A stretch of DNA of 64,000 nt from an uncultured Candidatus Saccharibacteria bacterium. Its GTDB lineage: Bacteria > Patescibacteriota > Minisyncoccia > Minisyncoccales > GWA2-38-27. The stretch covers positions 12,746-76,745 of the forward strand of contig CAYMZK010000004.1 of the NCBI GenBank assembly GCA_964394985.1. Direction: 5' to 3'. Shown here one piece after another: positions 18,173 through 57,470 of the stretch (position 1 is the first letter of the stretch; each line of letters opens with the position of its first letter). The notes beneath the pieces were generated by a model, which ran no database searches, was not told the origin of the DNA, and was given only the letters and a program-made list of their open reading frames with translations. Made by a program: the position numbers and the translations under genes.

Positions 18173-18318
18173 CACTTCGTGAGCTTATAATGTCTTAAAT
18201 TTTATATGTTTTGAGCTTTATTTCGAGTTCGAGGCACAGTATGTGATTTTTATCTTATTTATTTAATAAGAATAATTTCTTAATCTTAATTCTTACTTTG
18301 TTTTTTCTAAATATTCTG

Positions 18319-18628
18319 TCTAGGTTCAGATACATATGATACGCTCGCTCAGTTAATGTAATTAGGTTGCTCGGCTTGGCCGAGCAACCTAACGAGGAGC
18401 GTCTAGGTTCAGATAGATATTACACATCTGATTTTGTCCGATTGACCGGTCAATGGGACTATTTTTAGTATGAAGGTAGTATGAAGGTTGAACCTTCATA
18501 TATTGTGTTTTCATTGTTGTGCTCCACCTGGTGGAGCACAATGCTCCACCAGGTGGAGCACAATCGGGCGGAGCACTATGTTTTTCAAGGGGTTAGGTGT
18601 ATCATATCATATGGACCAGTACAAGCAC
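18319..18628 (+). repeat. modular multi-hairpin intergenic element, long copy (type B)
   Basis: Shares its ends and several modules with 57297-57470. Contains a 14-bp stem at 18362-18392, palindrome ATTGACCGGTCAAT at 18441-18454, hairpin ATGAAGGT-TGA-ACCTTCAT and tandem GTGCTCCACC/GGTGGAGCAC palindromes. Confidence 0.85.
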
Positions 18629-24821: not shown

Positions 24822-24845
24822 TGCCTGCCTGCCGGCAGGCAGGCA
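24822..24845. repeat. perfect 24-nt GC-rich palindrome TGCCTGCCTGCCGGCAGGCAGGCA
   Basis: Read directly. Lies in an unusual 117-nt rpsJ-rplC spacer. Its right arm overlaps a second hairpin, GGCAAATG (24842-24849) / CATTTGCC (24868-24875), which is followed by a T-run. Confidence 0.9.
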
Positions 24846-24891
24846 AATGACACAGTTTGAGGCTGGGCATTTGCCCCAGTTTTTGTTTATT

Positions 24892-27541: not shown

Positions 27542-28024
27542 ATGAAAGTTCAAAGTCAGTTAAAATATTTAAGAATTGCACCAAGAAAGGTTAGATTAAT
27601 GGCCGATATGATTAGAGGGAAAAAAGTTGAGGAAGCTCAAACAGCTTTAAGCTTTACTGTTAAAAAGTCATCTGAGCCATTATTAAAACTTTTAAATACT
27701 GCTATTTCTGACGCAAAGAATAATTTTCAGTTAGACCCAAGTAATTTAATTATTTCTGAGATAAGGGTTGATGGCGGTCCAATATTAAAAAGATGGAGAG
27801 CTAGATCAAGAGGGATGGTGGCTCCGATCCAAAAGAAAACTTCCCATGTCACTGTAATTTTAAATGAAATAGAGGCTGGAAAAAGAATTAAAAAGAAAGA
27901 AGTTAAAAAAGAAGAAAAGGTAATTAAAGAAGAAAAACCCAAAACCAAAAGACCGGTAATTGAAACACCAAAGCCAAAATCATCTAAGGGATTAAAAAAG
28001 ATATTTAGAAGAAAATCCATATAA
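27542..28024 (+). CDS. rplV: 50S ribosomal protein L22 (Lys/Glu-rich C-terminal extension)
   Basis: LRIAPRKVRLMADMIRGKKVEEA...RWRARSRGMVAPIQKKTSH. Confidence 0.95.
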   Translation: MKVQSQLKYLRIAPRKVRLMADMIRGKKVEEAQTALSFTVKKSSEPLLKLLNTAISDAKNNFQLDPSNLIISEIRVDGGPILKRWRARSRGMVAPIQKKTSHVTVILNEIEAGKRIKKKEVKKEEKVIKEEKPKTKRPVIETPKPKSSKGLKKIFRRKSI

Positions 28025-28137
28025 AATGCCAATCTACAAATGATACGCAAATACTACGAATTTTCAGGAAAATTATTAATTATTTAAATTATTCGTATCA
28101 TTTGCATAAATTCGCATTAAATTAGCATTATAACACT
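28025..28137 (+). repeat. type A ~110-nt hairpin element, copy 1 (between rplV and rpsC)
   Basis: Near-identical to 31923-32039, with 4 substitutions. 11-bp stem CAAATGATACG (28037-28047) / CGTATCATTTG (28094-28104). Phased GCATWA triplet near the 3' end. Confidence 0.9.
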
Positions 28138-28782
28138 ATGTCACATAAAGTACACCCAAAAGCTTATAGAATTAAAGGATTAAGTGATTGGCAGTCACGG
28201 GGTTTTTATAATAATCCAGCTATTCAACTAGAAGAAGATTATAAAATAAGAGAATATTTAACTAGAAAATTAAAGAGTCTTGGCGTTGAAAAAATAGAGA
28301 TTGAAAGATATACCAACAAAATGAATATTATTATCTTTAGCTCTAGACCAGGATTAATTATTGGAAGAGGGGGTGAAGGAGTCGAAAAACTTAAACAAGA
28401 ACTAGAGAATAAGATTATTAGACCAACAAAAAGGAAGTTTGAATTAAGGTTAGAAATTAGAGAAATTAAAGATCCGTGGACTTCTGCTAGTTTAAGTGCT
28501 CAGTCTATTGCTCAGCAAATTGAAAAAAGAATGCCTTATCGAAGAGTGTTAAAGCAAGCCTTAAGTAAAATAATGACCCACAAAGAAATTAAAGGAGCTA
28601 GAATCCAAGTTTCTGGAAGATTAAATGGAGTAGAGATCGCTAGAAGAGAGTGGGTTGGAAAAGGTCAGCTTCCCCGTCAAACAATTAGAGCGGATATTGA
28701 TTATTACCAGGTCAACGCAGTTTGTTCTTATGGAGTGATTGGAGTAAAAGTTTGGATATATAAAGGTGAAAAATTTGAATAA
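28138..28782 (+). CDS. rpsC: 30S ribosomal protein S3
   Basis: MSHKVHPKAYRI...GRGGEGVEKLK (KH domain)...GRLNGVEIAR. Confidence 0.96.
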   Translation: MSHKVHPKAYRIKGLSDWQSRGFYNNPAIQLEEDYKIREYLTRKLKSLGVEKIEIERYTNKMNIIIFSSRPGLIIGRGGEGVEKLKQELENKIIRPTKRKFELRLEIREIKDPWTSASLSAQSIAQQIEKRMPYRRVLKQALSKIMTHKEIKGARIQVSGRLNGVEIARREWVGKGQLPRQTIRADIDYYQVNAVCSYGVIGVKVWIYKGEKFE

Positions 28783-31922: not shown

Positions 31923-32039
31923 AAAAAATGCCAATCTACAAATGATACGCAAATACTACGAATTTTCAGGAAAATTATTAATTATTTAAATTATTCGCAT
32001 CATTTGCATAAATTCGCATTACATTTGCATTATAACAAT
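31923..32039 (+). repeat. type A ~110-nt hairpin element, copy 2 (between rplF and rplR)
   Basis: Near-identical to 28025-28137, in the same orientation and the same position relative to the downstream ATG. Confidence 0.9.
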
Positions 32040-32360
32040 ATGTTAGAGAAAAAAGTTAAAAAAAATAGAAGACATAGAAGGGTTAGAGCTAAAATTAAAG
32101 GAACAGCTGAGATTCCAAGGCTTTGTATTTTTAGATCTAATAGGTATATTTATGCTCAAGCTATAAACGACGATAATGGTCAAACTTTAATGAGTGCTAA
32201 AGGAGAATTAACTAAGGCTAAAGATGTTGGTCAAATTATCGCCAAAAAGGCTTTAGAGAAAAACATTAAGAAAATAGTCTTTGATCGAGCTGGATATAAA
32301 TATCATGGTCGAGTTAAAGATTTGGCTGAAGGAGCTCGTGAAGCTGGATTAAATTTTTAA
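32040..32360 (+). CDS. rplR: 50S ribosomal protein L18
   Basis: [31 protein letters not shown]...[27 protein letters not shown] at 32040 is preferred; the track start lies in the repeat. Confidence 0.95.
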
Positions 32361-39088: not shown

Positions 39089-39766
39089 ATGAGAAGTTTT
39101 TTAAAAAAACCTTTTCTAGTTTTAGATGTTGATCAAGATTTGATAAAAGCTTTAATCCTTGAACAAAAAGGCAAAGATTTGGTTGTTTTAAGAAATCATA
39201 TTAACAAAGAAGGAATTTTAAGTTCTTTGCAAGAAATTCAAGAAGGATTTAGAAAAGACATAAAAAAAATACCTTTATTAGTTTGTCCTCCTTCTAATCT
39301 TTTAAGAGCTAGGGCCATTGATTTTTCTTTTAATAGAAAGATTGATTGCCCAATTGATAAAAAGGAAGAGATGGATTTAATGGGAAAAGTTTTAGATTCA
39401 GTTAAAAAAAGAGTTAGTCAAGAGTTTTTAAGAGATTGCGGTATTTTGCCAGAAGACCTTCATTTTACTAATTTTAAAGTAACTGAGAGAAAGATTAATG
39501 GCTATCTAGTGGATAGATTAGCTGGTTATAGTGGTCTAGAATTAGACCTTAAAGTTTTAGTTAGCTTTATTCCCAAAAGAGACTTTAAGAAGATAAATTT
39601 TACTTTTGATCAAGCGGGTGTTAAAATTGATAAAATAGCCCATTTATCTGAAGCTTTATCTGAAGTGAGCTATTTAAGAGATTTTAAGCATATCAAGCCT
39701 ATATCAAATGATAGGCGCTATTTATCAAGCTTATTAATGTCATACTATGCCAAAGAAGTTTTATGA
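39089..39766 (+). CDS. hypothetical protein (possibly a divergent actin-fold FtsA/PilM-like N-domain)
   Basis: LVLDVDQDLIKALILEQ weakly resembles the phosphate-1 strand of actin-fold proteins. No confident family. Confidence 0.3.
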   Translation: MRSFLKKPFLVLDVDQDLIKALILEQKGKDLVVLRNHINKEGILSSLQEIQEGFRKDIKKIPLLVCPPSNLLRARAIDFSFNRKIDCPIDKKEEMDLMGKVLDSVKKRVSQEFLRDCGILPEDLHFTNFKVTERKINGYLVDRLAGYSGLELDLKVLVSFIPKRDFKKINFTFDQAGVKIDKIAHLSEALSEVSYLRDFKHIKPISNDRRYLSSLLMSYYAKEVL

Positions 39767-41000
39767 TATCATGCCACCGGGAAAAAAAATAGAACCAGTG
39801 GAGACAAATCCTCAAGAAGAGATTTCTCTAAAGGTTAAAACCCCCGGAAAAAAAAGAAAATGGATTATTGGTTTAGTTGTCTTTCTTCTTTTAGTCGGAG
39901 TTTCTCTTTGGGTTTCTTTTGCTTTTTCTGAAGTCAAAATAGCTATTTTTCCTAAATTAGATAAAGTGGCTTTAACTGAGACAGTAACGGTTAAACTAGA
40001 CTCTTCTTTGGATTTAGAAAATAATATTATTCCTGGTCAAAAGGTAGATAATGAAAAGATTTTAGCTCAAGATTTTCAGGCTACCGGGAAGGCGACCAAA
40101 GAAGCCAAAGCTACGGGAACAATTACAGTATACAATGCTTATTCCTCAACTCCAAGAACTTTTATTCCTTCTCGTTTTGTTTCAGCCGATGGCAAATTGT
40201 TTTGGTCAACTGAAAAAATTAGCGTGCCTGGATATACTAAAGAGGGGAATAAAGTTATTCCTGGAGAGGTTCAAGTCCCTGTTATTGCTAGTGAAGCTGG
40301 GCCAGAGTATAATATAGAGGCGACTACTTTTGCTATGCCGGGATTAGCTGGAACAGCTCTTTATACCACTATTTATGCTAAGTCTTTTGAGCCGATGACT
40401 GGTGGCTATATTGGTGAGTCAAGAAAGATTACAGAATCAGATTTAGAAAATGCTAAAAATGTCTTAATTGATAAGACCAAAGTTGAGGGTAAAGAGATTT
40501 TAAAAAAATCTTTACCCTTAGATCTTGTTCTTCTTGAAGAAACTTTAACTCAAGAAGTTTTAGAAGGTAAGTTTTCTCATTCATTGAGTGACGAAGTGGA
40601 TAATTTTAATTATGAAGTAAAGGTTAGATCTGAAGGGGTTGCTTTTAGTCGGTTAGATATAGAATTATTAGCTAAAGAAAGAATTAATTCAATAATTGAT
40701 AAAGATAAAACAATTAAAAAGGACAGTTTTAAGATAGAGTATAATTTAAAGGAAGTTAGTCCTGATGAAATGACTATTGAAATAGTTTTTAGTGTTGATG
40801 TATATACTGATATTAACTTAGAAGAAGCTAGAAAGGCTGTTACGGGGAAGTCTTTAGAGGAAACCTCTTTATTTTTAAAGTCCTTGTCTGGAATAGAAAA
40901 GGTTAAAATAGATAAAGGTAGCTTTATGCGAAGAAGCGTTCCAAGCTCTTTAGATAAAGTGAAAATCGATCTAATACTTGACCCCGCAGAAGAAATTTGA
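39747..41000 (+). CDS. hypothetical membrane-anchored protein (N-terminal TM, large extracytoplasmic domain)
   Basis: MPKKFYDIMPPGKK, then a TM helix, then a beta-rich domain. The last 5 codons and the stop lie inside the repeat element at 40982-41057. Confidence 0.5.
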   Translation: MPKKFYDIMPPGKKIEPVETNPQEEISLKVKTPGKKRKWIIGLVVFLLLVGVSLWVSFAFSEVKIAIFPKLDKVALTETVTVKLDSSLDLENNIIPGQKVDNEKILAQDFQATGKATKEAKATGTITVYNAYSSTPRTFIPSRFVSADGKLFWSTEKISVPGYTKEGNKVIPGEVQVPVIASEAGPEYNIEATTFAMPGLAGTALYTTIYAKSFEPMTGGYIGESRKITESDLENAKNVLIDKTKVEGKEILKKSLPLDLVLLEETLTQEVLEGKFSHSLSDEVDNFNYEVKVRSEGVAFSRLDIELLAKERINSIIDKDKTIKKDSFKIEYNLKEVSPDEMTIEIVFSVDVYTDINLEEARKAVTGKSLEETSLFLKSLSGIEKVKIDKGSFMRRSVPSSLDKVKIDLILDPAEEI

Positions 41001-41057
41001 TTTAGATTTTTTTAAAAAAATCTAAACTGTGGAACAGATCAAATTTTCTCTGCGGGG
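40982..41057. mobile_element. short (76-bp) member of the CCCCGYAGA-TIR MITE-like family
   Basis: TIRs CCCCGCAGAAGAAATTTGAT / ATCAAATTTTCTCTGCGGGG, flanked by TTGA on both sides. Internal palindrome TTTAGATTTTTTT/AAAAAAATCTAAA. Confidence 0.7.
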
Positions 41058-41086
41058 TTGACTAAATAATTGGATTTTGTTAGACT
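41058..41086 (+). promoter_or_regulatory. promoter upstream of infA (TTGACT-17-TAGACT)
   Basis: TTGACT at 41058-41063 and TAGACT at 41081-41086. Confidence 0.45.
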
Positions 41087-41097
41087 TATTACCATAA

Positions 41098-41322
41098 ATG
41101 GATAATCAGAATAAAAACACAATTAAAAAACAAGGCACCGTTTTGGAAGCTTTGCCAAGTACTCATTTTAAAATAGAATTAGAAGATGGTAAGGTTATTA
41201 TCGCTCATTTGGCTGGTAAAATGAGAATTCATAGAATTAAAGTTTTGCCGGGAGATAAAGTTACTGTTGAAATGAGTCCTTATGATGAAAACCGTGGAAG
41301 GATTGTCTATCGCGGTAAATAG
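41098..41322 (+). CDS. infA: translation initiation factor IF-1
   Basis: [51 protein letters not shown]...GRIVYRGK. Confidence 0.97.
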
Positions 41323-45244: not shown

Positions 45245-45934
45245 ATGTTAAAGGAAGTTATTGATAAATATTATTTAGATAGTAGAAAAACTAGAGAACA
45301 AACTCATTTCTATATCAGTCAAGCTGGGAAGTGTCCTCGTTCTATTTTTTTTAAATTCAAGGGGGTCCCCGAAAAAGAATTAGAGCCTCATATTTTAAGA
45401 TTGTTTGAACATGGTGATCATATGCATCAATTAATAATGAGTGCCTTGCTAAGTGCTCGTGATATTCATGTAGTCGCTTCTGAAGTTAAAATTCCTCCTC
45501 AAGAATTAATTTCTGGAAGAGCTGATGCGGTTTTAAGCGACGGTGATCAATTATATGTTTTAGATATTAAAAGTATGAATAGTATGGTGTTTAGGTCTTT
45601 AAAGGAACCTAAGCCAGAAAATGTTCAACAAATACAACTTTACCTCTATTATTTTAAAATTCCAAAAGGAATATTGCTTTATGTGAATAAAGATAATTTA
45701 CAATTAAAGGAGTTTGTTTTTGATTATGATGCCCAACAAGCCAGGTGTTTAATTGATGAGATGAACCTCTTAAAAGAACAAATAGATACTAATATTATTC
45801 CTAAAAGGTTAGAAGATTATCCTAATAATTGGCAGTGTCGTTATTGTCAATATCGATCGGTTTGTGATATGGCCTCTCCTTTAGAAATGAATTGGGGTGA
45901 TTTTAAATCTCAAATTAATTCATTGGAAGAATAA
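45245..45934 (+). CDS. PD-(D/E)XK nuclease, Cas4-like with 4-Cys signature (second copy in window)
   Basis: GKCPRS (N-terminal Cys), GRADAV...VLDIKS, QQIQLYLYY and CRYCQYRSVC. Confidence 0.7.
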   Translation: MLKEVIDKYYLDSRKTREQTHFYISQAGKCPRSIFFKFKGVPEKELEPHILRLFEHGDHMHQLIMSALLSARDIHVVASEVKIPPQELISGRADAVLSDGDQLYVLDIKSMNSMVFRSLKEPKPENVQQIQLYLYYFKIPKGILLYVNKDNLQLKEFVFDYDAQQARCLIDEMNLLKEQIDTNIIPKRLEDYPNNWQCRYCQYRSVCDMASPLEMNWGDFKSQINSLEE

Positions 45935-47292: not shown

Positions 47293-47372
47293 ATTAACCT
47301 TATTTTATCACTTGTTCTTGTTGAAATCAAGAACTTGATTTTATCTGAATATTATTTTAGAATAAGTACATG

Positions 47373-47510
47373 CCCCGTAGAGAAATTTCAATACATTCGC
47401 TGTAAGCGAATAAAAGAATACGGGGAATAATAAAGTATAATTAATAAATAGAAAAACAAACATAAGAATTTCAAGAAAGATGAGCAAACTAATTGAAATT
47501 CTTCTACGGG
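47373..47510 (+). mobile_element. CCCCGYAGA-TIR MITE-like element, full-length copy 1 (upstream of murA)
   Basis: Differs from 52208-52346 by 2 substitutions and 1 terminal nt. TIRs CCCCGTAGAGAAATTTCAAT / ATTGAAATTCTTCTACGGG. Flanked by ACATG (47368-47372) and ACATG (47511-47515). Confidence 0.8.
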
Positions 47511-47512
47511 AC

Positions 47513-51139: not shown

Positions 51140-52207
51140 ATGACAATTGTTATTGCAATAATATCTCTAATCTTTTTAATAATTTTTCATGAATTAGGCC
51201 ATTTTCTTTTTGCTAAAAAGTTTGGCGTTAGAGTAGATGAGTTTGGGATTGGCTATCCGCCTAGGGTTTGGGGTAAAAAGATTGGAGAAACTCTTTATTC
51301 TATCAACCTTCTTCCTTTAGGGGGGTTTGTTAAGATTTATGGTCATGAGGAAAGAATTGAAGAATCAGATAGTTTTACCACTAAGCCTTTTTGGCAGAAA
51401 TCTATAATCATTTTAGCGGGAGTGGCTGTTTTTTGGGTAATTGCCGCTATTTTATTAAGTGTAGTCGTCTATATCGGTGCTCCCTCAGCTATTAGTGATA
51501 ATGAAGTAACTGGATTTCAAGATCCTAAGGTTCAAATAATTAGTATTGCTGACAGCTCTCCAGCTTCAGGGTCTAATTTAAAAGTGGGAGATATCATTAA
51601 ATCAATTAATGATCAAGAAATAGATAAAGTTTATCAGGTTCAAAATTTAGTTTCTGAAAATAAAGGAGAAGAGATTATTTTAACTGTTCAAAGAGGACAA
51701 AAGTTAGAAGATATTAAAATAACTCCTCGCTTAGATTATCCTCAAGAAGAGGGCTCTATGGGGGTGGGTCTATTAAGAACCGGGCTGAAAAAAACAGTTT
51801 GGTATAAGGCGCCAGTTAAAGGAGTAGAGGCAACCGTTAATTTAACCAAAGCAGTTGTTGGTGGTTGGATAATTACTATAAAAGGATTAGTTCAGAACGG
51901 TGAACTTCCAGCTGGAGTAGAGGTGAAGGGTCCTATTGGAATATTTGAGCTTTTTAATAACTTTGGCGGATTGGGTGTTAGTTATTTTTTGCAATTTGTA
52001 GCCGTAATTGCTATTTCTTTGGCTTTAATTAATATTTTACCAATTCCTGCTCTAGATGGTGGTTGGTTTTTGTTCTTGGTTATTGAAAAAATAATAGGAA
52101 GACCATTGAATCAAAAATGGGTCCAAAATATTAGTGTCTTTTTCTTCTTTCTGTTAATTTTATTGTTAATTTGGGTAACTGTAAAAGATGTAATCGGGCT
52201 ATTATGA
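51140..52207 (+). CDS. rseP: RIP metalloprotease RseP (M50 with PDZ)
   Basis: HELGHF, central PDZ (GDIIKSINDQEI) and NILPIPALDGG. The TGA stop lies within the left TATGA repeat. Confidence 0.9.
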   Translation: MTIVIAIISLIFLIIFHELGHFLFAKKFGVRVDEFGIGYPPRVWGKKIGETLYSINLLPLGGFVKIYGHEERIEESDSFTTKPFWQKSIIILAGVAVFWVIAAILLSVVVYIGAPSAISDNEVTGFQDPKVQIISIADSSPASGSNLKVGDIIKSINDQEIDKVYQVQNLVSENKGEEIILTVQRGQKLEDIKITPRLDYPQEEGSMGVGLLRTGLKKTVWYKAPVKGVEATVNLTKAVVGGWIITIKGLVQNGELPAGVEVKGPIGIFELFNNFGGLGVSYFLQFVAVIAISLALINILPIPALDGGWFLFLVIEKIIGRPLNQKWVQNISVFFFFLLILLLIWVTVKDVIGLL

Positions 52208-52346
52208 CCCCGTAGAGAAATTTCAATACATTCGCTGAAAGCGAATAAAAGAATACGGGGAATAATAAAGTATAATTAATAAATAGAAAAACAAATATAA
52301 GAATTTCAAGAAAGATGAGCAAACTAATTGAAATTCTTCTACGGGG
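52208..52346 (+). mobile_element. CCCCGYAGA-TIR MITE-like element, full-length copy 2 (between rseP and proS)
   Basis: TIRs CCCCGTAGAGAAATTTCAAT / ATTGAAATTCTTCTACGGGG. Flanked by TATGA (52203-52207) and TATGA (52347-52351). Confidence 0.85.
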
Positions 52347-52347
52347 T

Positions 52348-53538
52348 ATGAGACAATCAAATCTTTTTTACAAAAGCTTAAAAGAAACACCTAAGGATGC
52401 TGAGGCCATTTCTCACATCCTTTTGTTAAGAGCCGGCTTTATTGATCAAACAGCAGCCGGAATTTTTAGTTTTTTACCTTTAGGATTAAAGGTTTTAAAA
52501 AACATTGAAGAGATTATTAGAGAAGAAATGGAAGCTGTTGGTGGTCAAGAAATTTTAATGCCGGCCTTAACTCCAAAGGAAAATTGGGATAAAACTGGAA
52601 GATGGGACGCTTTTGATGTTTTGTTCAAGTTAAAAGGAGGAAACAAAAAAGAGTATGCTTTGGGTCCAACTCACGAAGAAATAATTTCTCCCTTGGTAAA
52701 AAAACATATTTTATCGTATAAAGACTTGCCTTTTTCTTTGTTTCAAATTCAAACTAAATTTAGAAATGAATTAAGAGCCAAATCCGGGCTTTTAAGAACA
52801 AGAGAGTTTTTAATGAAAGATCTTTATTCTTTTCATATTGACCAGAAAGATCTAGATAACTATTACGAGAAAGTTGCCAAAGTTTACTTTGGGATTTTTA
52901 AAAGATGCGGATTGAAGGTGTATAAGACTCTAGCTTCTGGTGGTAGTTTTTCTAAATATTCTCATGAATATCAGGTAATAACTGGAGCTGGTGAAGATGT
53001 AATTTATCTTTGTGATAAATGCGGAATAGCTATAAACAAAGAAATAAAAGAGAAGAAGTGTCCTGAATGTGGCGGGACTAAATTTAAAGAAACTAAAGGA
53101 ATAGAGGTGGGAAACATTTTCAAATTAAAAGATAAATATTCTCTTCCTTTCCAACTAACCTTTAAAGACAAAGATGGTAAAGAAAAACCAGTTTTAATGG
53201 GTTGTTATGGAATTGGTCTAAGTCGAGTATTAGCCGCTATAGTTGAAACCAATAATGATGAGAATGGAATTATTTGGCCAAAAGAAGTAGCTCCTTTTGA
53301 TATTCATTTAATTTCTTTGAATAACATTAAGGCCGATAAAATTTATTCTAAATTAATTAAAGAAGGAAAAAGAGTGTTATACGATGATAGAAAAGAAGTT
53401 AGCGCTGGTCAAAAATTAGCCGAAGCTGATTTAATTGGAATTCCGGAAAGATGGGTGGTGAGCAAGAAGACTTTAGCTAAAAAATCAGTTGAAATTAAAA
53501 AAAGAAATCAAAAGAAAGTAAAATTGACAAAGATCTAG
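52348..53538 (+). CDS. proS: prolyl-tRNA synthetase, bacterial-type N-terminus, INS editing domain absent (396 aa)
   Basis: MRQSNLFYKSLKETPKDAE aligns to ProRS MRTSQYLLSTLKETPADAE. FRNELRAKSGLLRTREFLMKDLYSF. A CDKC...CPEC knuckle sits where INS normally lies. The track start at 52315 lies in the repeat. Confidence 0.9.
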   Translation: MRQSNLFYKSLKETPKDAEAISHILLLRAGFIDQTAAGIFSFLPLGLKVLKNIEEIIREEMEAVGGQEILMPALTPKENWDKTGRWDAFDVLFKLKGGNKKEYALGPTHEEIISPLVKKHILSYKDLPFSLFQIQTKFRNELRAKSGLLRTREFLMKDLYSFHIDQKDLDNYYEKVAKVYFGIFKRCGLKVYKTLASGGSFSKYSHEYQVITGAGEDVIYLCDKCGIAINKEIKEKKCPECGGTKFKETKGIEVGNIFKLKDKYSLPFQLTFKDKDGKEKPVLMGCYGIGLSRVLAAIVETNNDENGIIWPKEVAPFDIHLISLNNIKADKIYSKLIKEGKRVLYDDRKEVSAGQKLAEADLIGIPERWVVSKKTLAKKSVEIKKRNQKKVKLTKI

Positions 53539-55364: not shown

Positions 55365-56752
55365 TGGATTTAAATTTAACCATTAAAGAAGCTCATGATA
55401 AGTTGAAAAAGAAGGAATTTACTGCTTTTGAATTAACAAAAGCTTTTTTAGATAGAATTGAAAAAGAGGACGATCAAATAAATGCCTTTTTAACCGTAGA
55501 TAGAGAAGGGGCTCTAGAGCAAGCCAAGCAAGCAGATAAAAGGATTATGAAGGGCGATATGGGGGTTTTGACTGGGATGCCGGTAGCGATTAAAGATAAT
55601 ATGTTAGTTAAAGGATTAAAAAACACTTGCGCTTCTAAGATTTTAGAAAACTATATTGCTCCTTATAATGCTACGGTAATTGAGAAGTTTAAAAAAGAAG
55701 GAGCTATTATTTTAGGCAAAACTAATTTAGATGAATTTGCTATGGGCTCTTCAACAGAGAATTCTGCCTTTGGAGTTACTAAAAATCCCCATGATCGAGA
55801 AAGAGTTCCTGGTGGTAGTTCTGGAGGGTCAGCGGCAGCTGTTGCTCATAATTTTTGCGTGTTTGCTCTTGGGTCAGATACAGGCGGTTCAATCAGGCAA
55901 CCAGCTAGTTTTTGTGGAATAGTGGGTCTAAAGCCAACCTATGGAGCAGTTTCTCGTTATGGATTAGTGGCTTTTGCTTCTTCTTTTGATCAAATAGGAC
56001 CAATGACCAAAACAGCTCAAGATGCTCAGATTGTTTTTGAAACTATTAGTGGTCAAGATCCTAAAGATTCAACTAGTCTAGAGCCAAAAATTCAAAATTC
56101 AAAATTCAAAATTCAAAATTTACGCATAGGAGTGCCTAAAGAATATTTTGAGGGAGATTTTGAAACTAAGTCAGGAATATTAAAATCATTAGAGCTAGCC
56201 AAAGCTAAAGGAGCTCAGATAGTAGATATTAGTTTGCCGAATACTAAATACGCTCTATCTTCATATTATATTCTTACTCCTTCTGAGGCCTCAGCTAATT
56301 TATCCAGATATGACGGAATAAAGTTTGGCTTGTCTGAAGAGGGTAAAGATTTAATGGATGTTTATTTAAATACTAAAGAAAAAGGATTTGGTGCTGAAGT
56401 TAAAAGAAGAATTATGATTGGAACTTATGCCTTGTCTTCCGGATACTATGATGCCTATTATTTAAAAGCGCAAAAAGTAAGGAGTTTAATTAAACAAGAC
56501 TTTCAAAAAGCTCTTGAGAAAGTAGACATTATTGTTACTCCGACTACTCCGACTAAAGCCTTTAAAATAGGAGAAAAGATGGATCCTCTTTCAATGTATC
56601 TTTCAGACATTTTCACTGTTTCGGCTAATTTGGCGGGACTGCCTGCTGTTTCAATTCCTATTGATTCCGATGATCTTCCAATTGGTTTGCAAATTATTGG
56701 AAAACCCTTTGAAGAGAAGGGGATTTTAGAAATAGCTAAAATGTATGAATAA
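55364..56752 (+). CDS. gatA: Asp/Glu-tRNA amidotransferase subunit A
   Basis: Amidase signature [12 protein letters not shown]...[16 protein letters not shown]. Contains the AAAATTC heptamer repeat at 56087-56121. Confidence 0.95.
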
Positions 56753-57287: not shown

Positions 57288-57296
57288 AGAACTCTA

Positions 57297-57470
57297 TCTA
57301 GGTTCAGATACATATGATACGCTCAGTTAATTTATTACGTTTGGTAACTGGGTTGCTCGGCTTGGCCGAGCAACCCTGGGACTATTTTTAGTATGAAGGT
57401 TGAACCTTCATATATTGTGCTTCAAGGGTCTTTTGGTGTATCATATCATATGGACCACCAGTACAAGAAC
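57297..57470 (+). repeat. modular multi-hairpin intergenic element, short copy (type B)
   Basis: Collinear with 18319-18628 minus three inserted modules. Closing helix CATATGATAC (57311-57320) / GTATCATAT (57438-57446). Confidence 0.85.

Follow-up and report, generated by a model that had tools for sequence, protein, structure and literature searches.

The Correia elements of Neisseria (CREE/NEMIS) are hairpin-forming MITEs (miniature inverted-repeat transposable elements) of 100-155 bp which lie in compact intergenic regions and can alter the ends of genes or the context of promoters. They are co-transcribed with neighbouring genes, their long stems being substrates of RNase III, and they are found in Neisseria only, with a TA duplication and 26-bp arms. 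Rickettsia palindromic elements (RPEs) are palindromic repeats that become protein-coding; they insert in frame inside open reading frames (ORFs) and their transposition signature is unclear. Elements of the REP/REPIN-RAYT type show no duplication and go together with a RAYT gene, PATE elements have neither inverted repeats nor duplication and keep a fixed orientation 3' of their target tetranucleotide, and IS1397 and ISKpn1 are IS3-family DDE elements that insert into the loops of REP/BIME hairpins. Here we report a 76-bp hairpin element lying between the gene for a 417-aa membrane protein and infA in an uncultured Candidatus Saccharibacteria bacterium, within a 64-kb (64,000 nt) stretch of contig CAYMZK010000004.1 that is referred to throughout as the window. 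In all likelihood the segment is a non-coding (MITE-like) member of a hairpin-ended mobile family widespread in Patescibacteria, other members of which encode a small GIY-YIG nuclease.

The family differs from the Correia elements, whose arms are of unrelated sequence, in its TTGA (mostly 4-bp) duplication, its TTGAC target, its CCCCG(C/T)AGA... arms, its covarying Y-shaped core and its GIY-YIG relative, and the window copy is accordingly not a Correia element. As with the RPEs a palindromic repeat supplies coding sequence, here five codons and a stop from one arm; in contrast to them only the 3' end of the gene is rewritten, and both the duplication and the empty site are explicit. A duplication with an empty site, and no HUH gene in the window or the sampled loci, set it apart from REP/REPIN-RAYT systems, and its arms, duplication and two orientations (17:6) from PATEs. 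Some short copies do sit in the loops of other hairpins, as IS1397 and ISKpn1 do, but in the GIY-YIG-associated family loops are a minority target and TTGAC the main one. The locus is arranged as follows.

39747-41000, plus strand: gene for a 417-aa conserved Patescibacteria membrane protein, function unassigned, the last five codons and stop being element-derived
40978-40981, plus strand: left copy of the target site duplication, TTGA, a single TTGA in the L004 empty site
40982-41001, plus strand: left arm CCCCGCAGAAGAAATTTGAT, 20 nt, of the 'arm A' type AGAAGAA
41001-41026, plus strand: large inner hairpin, a perfect 13+13 A/T palindrome TTTAGATTTTTTT/AAAAAAATCTAAA
41027-41037, plus strand: small inner hairpin CTGT-GGA-ACAG with a 4-bp stem and 3-nt loop
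41038-41057, plus strand: right arm ATCAAATTTTCTCTGCGGGG, 20 nt, whose reverse complement is of the 'arm B' type AGAGAAA
41058-41061, plus strand: right copy of the target site duplication, TTGA
41058-41086, plus strand: predicted infA promoter, with -35 TTGACT at 41058-41063, a 17-nt spacer, TG at 41078-41079 and -10 TAGACT at 41081-41086
41098-41322, plus strand: infA, translation initiation factor IF-1 (Pfam PF01176 eIF-1a, E = 3e-25)

The 76-bp element was inserted between the TTGA and the C of CTTGACTAA, duplicating TTGA. This target doubles as the last codon and stop of the 417-aa gene and as the -35 hexamer of infA. An original prediction made from the letters of the window had placed the element at 40982-41057 between two TTGA copies and had read the upstream ORF through the left arm; all of these coordinates check out in the sequence, and the reading frame agrees. 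The left TTGA copy is predicted to open the ORF into the left arm and to add PAEEI to its product: the first C of the arm finishes the Asp codon, the Pro-Ala-Glu-Glu-Ile codons fill 40983-40997 and a new stop TGA falls at 40998-41000, giving GA/C CCC GCA GAA GAA ATT TGA (...LILD-PAEEI-stop). Deletion of the element and one TTGA in silico yields CTT GAC TAA.

Searching with the 417-aa protein gave 120 hits, an identical copy (P0001) and 119 relatives, all from Patescibacteria-type sources. The identical copy is on an independent assembly and includes the PAEEI tail, which rules out an assembly artefact. Ninety-seven of the 119 orthologs end exactly at a conserved hydrophobic-Asp/Glu/Asn position (...LD), and the closest non-identical one (locus L004, 52% amino acid identity) has the empty site ...CTTGACTAA... 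with a single TTGA. The L004 locus reads ...ctaatacTTGActaaa... / ...ctaatacTTGActaaaatgctggattttgtTAAACT...ATG, which is the window minus the element and one TTGA. The proposal of an insertion into a gene once ending in ...LILD is borne out by this empty site and by the 97 orthologs, and an ancestral product ending ...LD is supported. The opposite pattern, in which all orthologs would carry PAEEI and the hairpin, was looked for among the 119 and not seen.

The right-hand TTGA rebuilds the -35 hexamer TTGACT of the predicted infA promoter at the correct 17-nt spacing from the -10, as had been proposed. The pattern TTGACT-17-TGnTAGACT ends 11 nt 5' of the infA ATG (41098) and after in silico removal of the inserts the promoter is kept at eight orthologous loci, their insert-free alignment reading cTTGA/CT(a/g)...TT(T)G(T/C)TAAnnT...ATG (GTG in L107, the copy of which is more diverged with a -10 of TAATAT). 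We infer that infA expression should be unaffected and that the insertion is close to neutral. The sole likely effect on the host is that the upstream transcript would carry a highly stable hairpin (-38 kcal/mol) at its 3' end, which may insulate or stabilise it.

The same site has been filled repeatedly. Pro-initial tails after the terminal Asp ('DP...') occur in 10 of the 119 orthologs, with PVEEI, PVEKF and PLEKF recurring, and we read the DNA for six of the ten (the L127/P0095 contig ends within the insert). At L001/P0007 a 75-bp family member gives the tail PVEEI. In four loci reached via tailed orthologs (L123-L126) a hairpin with CCC...GGG ends lies at exactly the same position, TTGA preceding it and TTGAC following it, and a 78-bp family member occupies the site in a Parcubacteria metagenome-assembled genome (MAG) found by tblastn (L107, ortholog 35% identical). 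Together the L123-L126 and L107 inserts measure 80, 32, 24, 66 and 78 bp, in both arm orientations and of at least three sequence types. The 80-bp insert is a family member with its arms in the opposite orientation and the tail PVEKF; the 66-bp insert (L126:2428-2501) has different arms (CCCCGTTAGAGG... / CCCCGTTAGAGGTT...) and a duplicated TTGA; the 32-bp insert (L124:1509-1548) is an unrelated perfect palindrome CCCTTCACCTTAA...TTAAGGTGAAGGG, again with TTGA duplicated; and L125:2370-2401 holds a 24-bp remnant with a TTGA duplication. These last three hairpins may belong to further families using the same insertion route. With PAEEI and a stop coming from the left arm and other DP tails from inserts, the suggestion that the family can contribute coding sequence was well founded. 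A neighbour-joining tree of the orthologs places the filled loci in scattered positions beside sister lineages that are empty (the window with P0002, P0007 with P0009), so several independent gains are required. The TTGA/C site upstream of infA is a recurrent hotspot, six other lineages carrying different hairpin inserts at exactly this position.

The two arms of the window element pair at 18 of 20 positions, and with up to 3 mismatches allowed the arm sequence occurs at just these two sites within the window (0.01 expected). The 76 bp fold into a Y shape (-38.4 kcal/mol and z = -8.2 for RNA, -26.4 kcal/mol and z = -9.4 for DNA), and the 200 shuffles include none that folds equally well. The core had been described as an A/T palindrome, which is correct and perfect at 13+13, and the mini-hairpin CTGT-GGA-ACAG has to be added to that description. 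The element is small and has no internal ORF, carries 20-nt terminal inverted repeats, has a target site duplication with an empty site and exists in dispersed copies, as expected of a MITE; the window holds three copies of the family, one of 76 bp and two of 139 bp. Its arms had been put at about 17/20 identity with those of the long copies. Ungapped the figure is 16/20 (12/13 over the terminal 13 nt) and some 17-18/20 is reached only with a 1-nt indel, while variants in other genomes bridge the short and long arm forms. A scan of the window with Rfam 15 at gathering thresholds returned tRNAs only, and the best sub-threshold matches over the element are to generic hairpins with 18-27 bits against thresholds of 37-90. 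The sequence 3' of the stem, TTGACTAAAT, has no U-tract and a terminator scan made no call here.

Family members were collected by an arm pattern scan of one genome per species and by a stricter pattern on metagenome contigs, which added 97 elements; the two collections are independent. The family arms have the ends CCCCGTAGA... and the inverted pair takes the form CCCCGTAG...CTACGGGG. In the one-genome-per-species scan inverted arm pairs were confined to Patescibacteria MAGs, including Nealsonbacteria, Parcubacteria, Minisyncoccales and Magasanikiibacteriota. Single arm matches in other phyla look like chance, and the same was taken to hold for the 20 single matches in viral contigs, where the scan found no inverted pair. 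De-duplication left 145 insertion sites, 83 with short copies (up to 100 bp, mostly 69-83 bp) and 62 with longer ones. The commonest target site duplication across the family is 4 bp, followed by 5 bp. An asymmetry of the arms runs through the family, with AGAAGAA on one side and AGAGAAA on the other, which places an A·C mismatch beside a G·T pair in the stem. The family is apparently undescribed: no description of it was found in the searchable literature on Candidate Phyla Radiation (CPR) MITEs, on the arm sequence or on GIY-YIG genes with inverted repeats, duplications or MITEs. Literature matches to the arm sequence were set aside as the Tn3 end in cloning vectors, judging by the titles. 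GIY-YIG-coding insertions in CPR rRNA genes have been reported that are neither introns nor typical homing elements (PMC11270868).

Short copies show a clear choice of target. A perfect TTGA duplication flanks 24 of the 83 (29%, against 1.5% expected; p = 2e-24), and the next base is C in all 24, giving 16 TTGACA, 6 TTGACT and 2 TTGACC. A strict -10-like hexamer follows 16-18 nt downstream in 18 of the 24 (75%), compared with 17.5% of 1404 background TTGAC sites taken from elsewhere in the same loci (p = 1e-9). The enrichment at promoters may come about because most of the TTGAC that can be tolerated in compact genomes are -35 boxes and because the duplication restores the box; we infer that the promoter preference amounts to a sequence preference for TTGAC plus purifying selection in a very compact genome. 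Other short copies use TATAA inside TATAAT, TATG, TAAA or the loops of other hairpins (with the duplications CAAAG, CTTCG or CGAAG), and some of the loop insertions are nested in the small hairpin of another family member. TTGAC as the sole target of the short class was rejected, since it accounts for about a quarter of copies in the metagenome set. Orientation relative to TTGAC is biased and not fixed (17:6 by arm type, p = 0.035), the window copy having the minority orientation; a strict orientation was likewise rejected, a hand count by core order giving 17:10.

The conserved ends with variable cores noted in the original prediction are a family trait as far as the ends go; the cores do not vary freely. 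Those of 78 distinct short copies fold better than their shuffles (median z = -2.9, 79% below -2) and most contain one small hairpin with a 4-bp stem and 3-nt loop and one large hairpin of 8-11 bp. RNAalifold on a MAFFT alignment recovered the outer stem only, with the inner hairpins out of register, and was replaced by a covariance model built from 44 copies, which aligned the cores in register, and by a pair count on the 78 distinct best-strand rows. Canonical pairs make up 96% of the pair cells, and positions of the inner hairpins use three to four pair types each (for example GC 26, AT 12, TA 12, CG 11), counts that come from an alignment fitted to the structure. The covariation behind the Y-shaped fold of the short class suggests that what is selected is a folded single strand or a cruciform and not a sequence bound by protein.

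Small selfish nuclease genes wedged between host genes are known in the form of free-standing GIY-YIG homing genes (phage T4 seg, I-TevI family). Homing endonucleases have a C-terminal DNA-binding domain, act at one cognate site through homologous repair and have no inverted repeats or duplications. The coding members of the present family differ in having the catalytic domain alone, 20-nt arms, a TATG duplication, many loci and non-coding derivatives. They are 296-390 bp long with one ORF each, coding for a stand-alone GIY-YIG domain (PF01541, E = 1e-15 to 1e-17, 56-62 bits; cut-off 22.6). This ORF runs to 86-91 aa, typically 87 aa in an element of ~310 bp, and comprises the catalytic domain only. 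All 30 homologs compared share the catalytic Tyr, Gly, Arg and Glu (motifs Y..Y, Y.G, R and E) without exception. The nearest relatives by sequence and fold are UPF0213 (YhbQ-like) and Slx1: the nearest solved structures by sequence are UPF0213 (1ZG2, 1YWL), a likeness to UPF0213/Slx1 that is weak by E-value (1.6e-3 to 1e-2), and a model of the nuclease (predicted local distance difference test score 91.7) matches 6SEH, 7CQ3 and 4XLG (Slx1 domain) with template modelling scores of 0.62-0.69 and probability 1.0, better than I-TevI. Slx1, a eukaryotic repair enzyme, depends on Slx4 and cleaves DNA with branches or stem-loops. The UPF0213 proteins are without an assigned function and, unlike the coding members, have not been described as bounded by inverted repeats.

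A protein search with the nuclease gave 1414 relatives, the best 120 of which are 71-100% identical, are named 'GIY-YIG nuclease family protein', come from Patescibacteria, Paceibacterota, Doudnabacteria and Buchananbacteria and are in many cases on short contigs. Five homologs were picked blind to their DNA, and all five have the same arms, flanked on each side by a TATG or ATG(A) repeat, in five gene neighbourhoods; the neighbours are gatA and the gene after it in one case and gvpL/F and gvpG in a second, and a third element is directly on the start codon of fpg (MPELPEVE). Further coding elements carry arm variants sharing only CCCCGTAG. Identity among the nucleases is 70-100%, compared with 35-50% among host proteins encoded at these loci. 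Altogether coding members, with 20-nt arms and TATG duplications, occupy at least eight different host loci. They sit exactly on host start codons with TATG or TATGA duplicated, and the ORF invariably points the same way as the host gene downstream of it. Four elements have an ORF that lacks its own start codon, so that translation must begin at the duplicated host ATG and pass through the arm (MPRRRILTWHYVYI...); some database gene calls in the other subfamily likewise start through the arm (MPRREIS...). Other calls extend across the right arm (...SKFFYGV) and this read-through could end at a stop overlapping the host ATG (TATGA). As a side observation, GIY-YIG homologs of 44-48% identity at L179:6231-6434 and L231:812-1045 have no recognisable arms, so the arm-bounded family does not take in all the small GIY-YIG genes of these genomes.

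Both ends of the size range are tied to these coding elements. The arms of short copies are identical to those of coding copies, and a short copy can nest in a coding member (L255). The long class matches the coding class in arm polarity and in its position on start codons, oriented copies having (T/C)ATG and then a long ORF on their right flank, and in MAG JAHJUH01 the last 75 nt of a 142-bp long element are the 3' end of a 351-bp coding element (74/75 identical). The ~135-bp long copies are deletion derivatives of coding members. The window contains two long copies and one orthologous empty site.

47373-47511, plus strand: long member, 139 bp, on the start codon of murA (assigned by Pfam), flanked by (A)CATG; 33.7 bits
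52208-52346, plus strand: long member, 139 bp, 97% identical to the copy at 47373, with TATGA duplicated at 52203-52207 and 52347-52351
56744-56748, plus strand: unoccupied TATGA where the gatA stop overlaps the start of the next ORF, the orthologous empty site ...aaaatgTATGAataag... for a coding member of JAHJUH01 (L268)

The copy at 52208 lies where an M50-peptidase gene and a class-II aminoacyl-tRNA synthetase gene (proS-like by its N-terminal sequence) overlap, the ATGA holding the stop of the former and the start of the latter. In the filled allele of L268 the arm rewrites the end of gatA to ...KLYAP-stop, the same kind of effect as the PAEEI tail.

Several further observations were made on the long class. 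From the left duplicated ATG of the 52208 copy runs an ORF of 11 codons, MPRREISIHSL-stop, apparently a remnant of the nuclease N-terminus that is read through the arm, and an internal ATG in the 139-bp copies gives both host proteins an in-frame 11-aa extension (MSKLIEILLRG/D). Upstream of the murA copy (47330-47372) TTGATT-17-TAGAAT ends 6 nt before the original ATG, which suggests a leaderless mRNA, and similar -10 boxes are found 6-9 nt before the left ATG at several long or coding elements in other genomes; long and coding elements may often sit at the transcription start of leaderless genes. A by-eye search of the long class for a convincing outward promoter gave nothing decisive. The long class also has an internal ACGGGG ~50 nt from the 5' end (e.g. 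47423-47428) that could pair with the 5' CCCCGT instead of the 3' arm, and such an alternative fold would possibly free the region beside the host start codon.

How the elements move is a more tentative matter. We consider it possible, and somewhat short of probable, that the family is a new class of prokaryotic transposable element whose only protein is the 87-aa Slx1/UPF0213-type GIY-YIG nuclease, with no DDE, HUH, serine, tyrosine or Cas1 enzyme, and that this nuclease recognises the folded arms and not an extended DNA sequence. The nuclease would move the short elements in trans, as its exclusive association with the arms, the similarity of fold and the covariation suggest. It might recognise the arms as a cruciform or Y shape, its nearest structural relatives appearing to be Slx1-type enzymes that act on branched DNA; recognition of folded arms would explain why the inner hairpins are kept via compensatory changes. 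Coding members would use the promoter of the host gene, one subfamily also taking over the duplicated host ATG, and would hand translation back to the host gene, while stripped-down derivatives such as the 76-bp element would enter the first four bases of -35 hexamers and the duplication would repair the promoter.

A number of points weigh against this account. No GIY-YIG gene is present in the 64-kb window, so any mobilisation would have been in trans or in the past, and we know of no GIY-YIG nuclease that integrates leaving target duplications; the role of the nuclease in mobilisation is a case of association. Coding and long members use TATG and short ones favour TTGAC and other 4-mers, and one enzyme must fit both. 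Minimal coding elements have no inner hairpins, and the covarying Y-shaped core may serve a purpose other than recognition by the nuclease. Among the short copies 20 of 83 are without an exact duplication, and target site duplication lengths run over 3-6 bp. The window and L001 copies match in site and orientation, and one old insertion could explain both. Promoter function and the translated PAEEI tail are themselves predictions from sequence.

The alternative that fares best, in our view an unlikely one, is a classical MITE family moved by an unsampled conventional transposase, for example of the DDE type, with the GIY-YIG gene as a passenger or an independent selfish gene on the same ends. 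Terminal inverted repeats with 3-5-bp duplications are typical of DDE transposition, short copies stand in both orientations to TTGAC (17:6 by arm type) and GIY-YIG enzymes are, to our knowledge, not integrases. No transposase turned up between arm pairs, across the ~800 kb of loci that bear elements or within the window. Pfam identified two PD-(D/E)XK nucleases but neither transposases nor recombinases in the 38 window ORFs scanned; no transposase or other non-GIY-YIG ORF lies between any arm pair, and clustering of the 446 ORFs of 200 aa or longer found in 121 element-bearing loci yielded nothing but housekeeping families. Arm pairs 0.4-4 kb apart were considered as autonomous elements and rejected, L112/L113 as chance (Acidoferrum, Pseudomonas) and L181 as a phage-like contig, all the rest being two separate small elements flanking ordinary genes. 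Every arm-bounded element with an ORF carries GIY-YIG alone, all five of the blind-picked homologs have arms and one long MITE is a direct deletion derivative of a GIY-YIG element.

It is less probable still that the host has put the short Y elements to use as functional modules of RNA or DNA close upstream of promoters, for instance as transcriptional insulators, 3'-end stabilisers or RNase III sites, with selection and not insertion preference setting their position and fold, an explanation compatible with a mobile origin. Covariation in the inner hairpins does indicate selection on a folded state, 75% of TTGA-type copies abut a complete promoter and Correia elements provide a precedent for RNase III processing. 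Selection for a place somewhere upstream of a promoter would however not be expected to produce the nucleotide-exact TTGA/C position; copies also occur in hairpin loops, -10 boxes and start codons and nested in each other, and their presence among orthologous loci is patchy.

Very little speaks for a single-stranded DNA element of the REP/REPIN-RAYT or IS200/IS605 (PATE) type recognised as a hairpin by an HUH Y1 transposase and inserted beside a particular tetranucleotide, despite a GTAG motif near the ends of most copies (GCAG in the window copy), structurally conserved hairpins and a tetranucleotide target preference, given the true duplication proven by the empty site, the 20-nt terminal inverted repeats, the two orientations relative to the target (17:6) and the lack of a RAYT, TnpA or other HUH gene in the window or sampled loci. 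Least credible is the idea that the 417-aa gene and infA are separated by an ordinary terminator or regulatory hairpin that is conserved there; although a very stable hairpin directly follows the stop and precedes the promoter and several lineages have hairpins at this position, the product ends at LD in 97 of 119 orthologs, the empty site is exact and TTGA is duplicated, the inserts at the site vary in sequence, size and orientation, the same type of element is found at ~145 unrelated sites with a scattered phylogenetic distribution, and there is no U-tract, terminator call or Rfam family above threshold.

Other repeats and nuclease genes in the window were noted in passing. A second, unrelated repeat family of 127 nt has two copies (28023-28149 and 31925-32051, 94% identical) in the ribosomal-protein cluster, both of them stopping immediately short of the start codon of the gene that follows (rpsC-like and rplR-like). 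Two tRNA loci have upstream of them a copy of a structured repeat of 180-300 nt (18315-18620 and 57293-57470) with the common blocks TCTAGGTTCAGATACATATGATACGCTC, GGTTGCTCGGCTTGGCCGAGCAACC and GTATGAAGGTTGAACCTTCATA, the first copy having a 22+22 perfect palindrome at 18517-18563. Between rpsJ and rplC a G+C-rich palindrome CCTGCCTGCCGGCAGGCAGG (24822-24847) lies beside ATG triplets; a near-identical palindrome is found inside a 209-bp family member (L018:5464-5672) and may be another small mobile hairpin. The two PD-(D/E)XK (Cas4/RecB-like) nuclease genes are at 1702-2526 and 45245-45934, the second being syntenic in L001, and no link between them and the elements was seen.

Taken by itself the locus is modest: a mobile hairpin has with nucleotide precision rewritten a C-terminus and left the next promoter intact in a genome with almost no intergenic space. 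The mobile DNA of the CPR is poorly charted, and if the nuclease is the mobilising enzyme one more enzyme class would be added to the known movers of prokaryotic transposons. Many Patescibacteria annotations of a 'GIY-YIG nuclease family protein', and extensions such as PAEEI, PVEKF and MPRREIS, can be read as footprints of these elements, a reading that aids annotation and the study of assembly breaks. The elements occupy core expression signals, namely -35 hexamers, -10 boxes, start codons and ATGA stop/start overlaps; a parasite that duplicates the signal which it interrupts can in this way survive in a streamlined genome.

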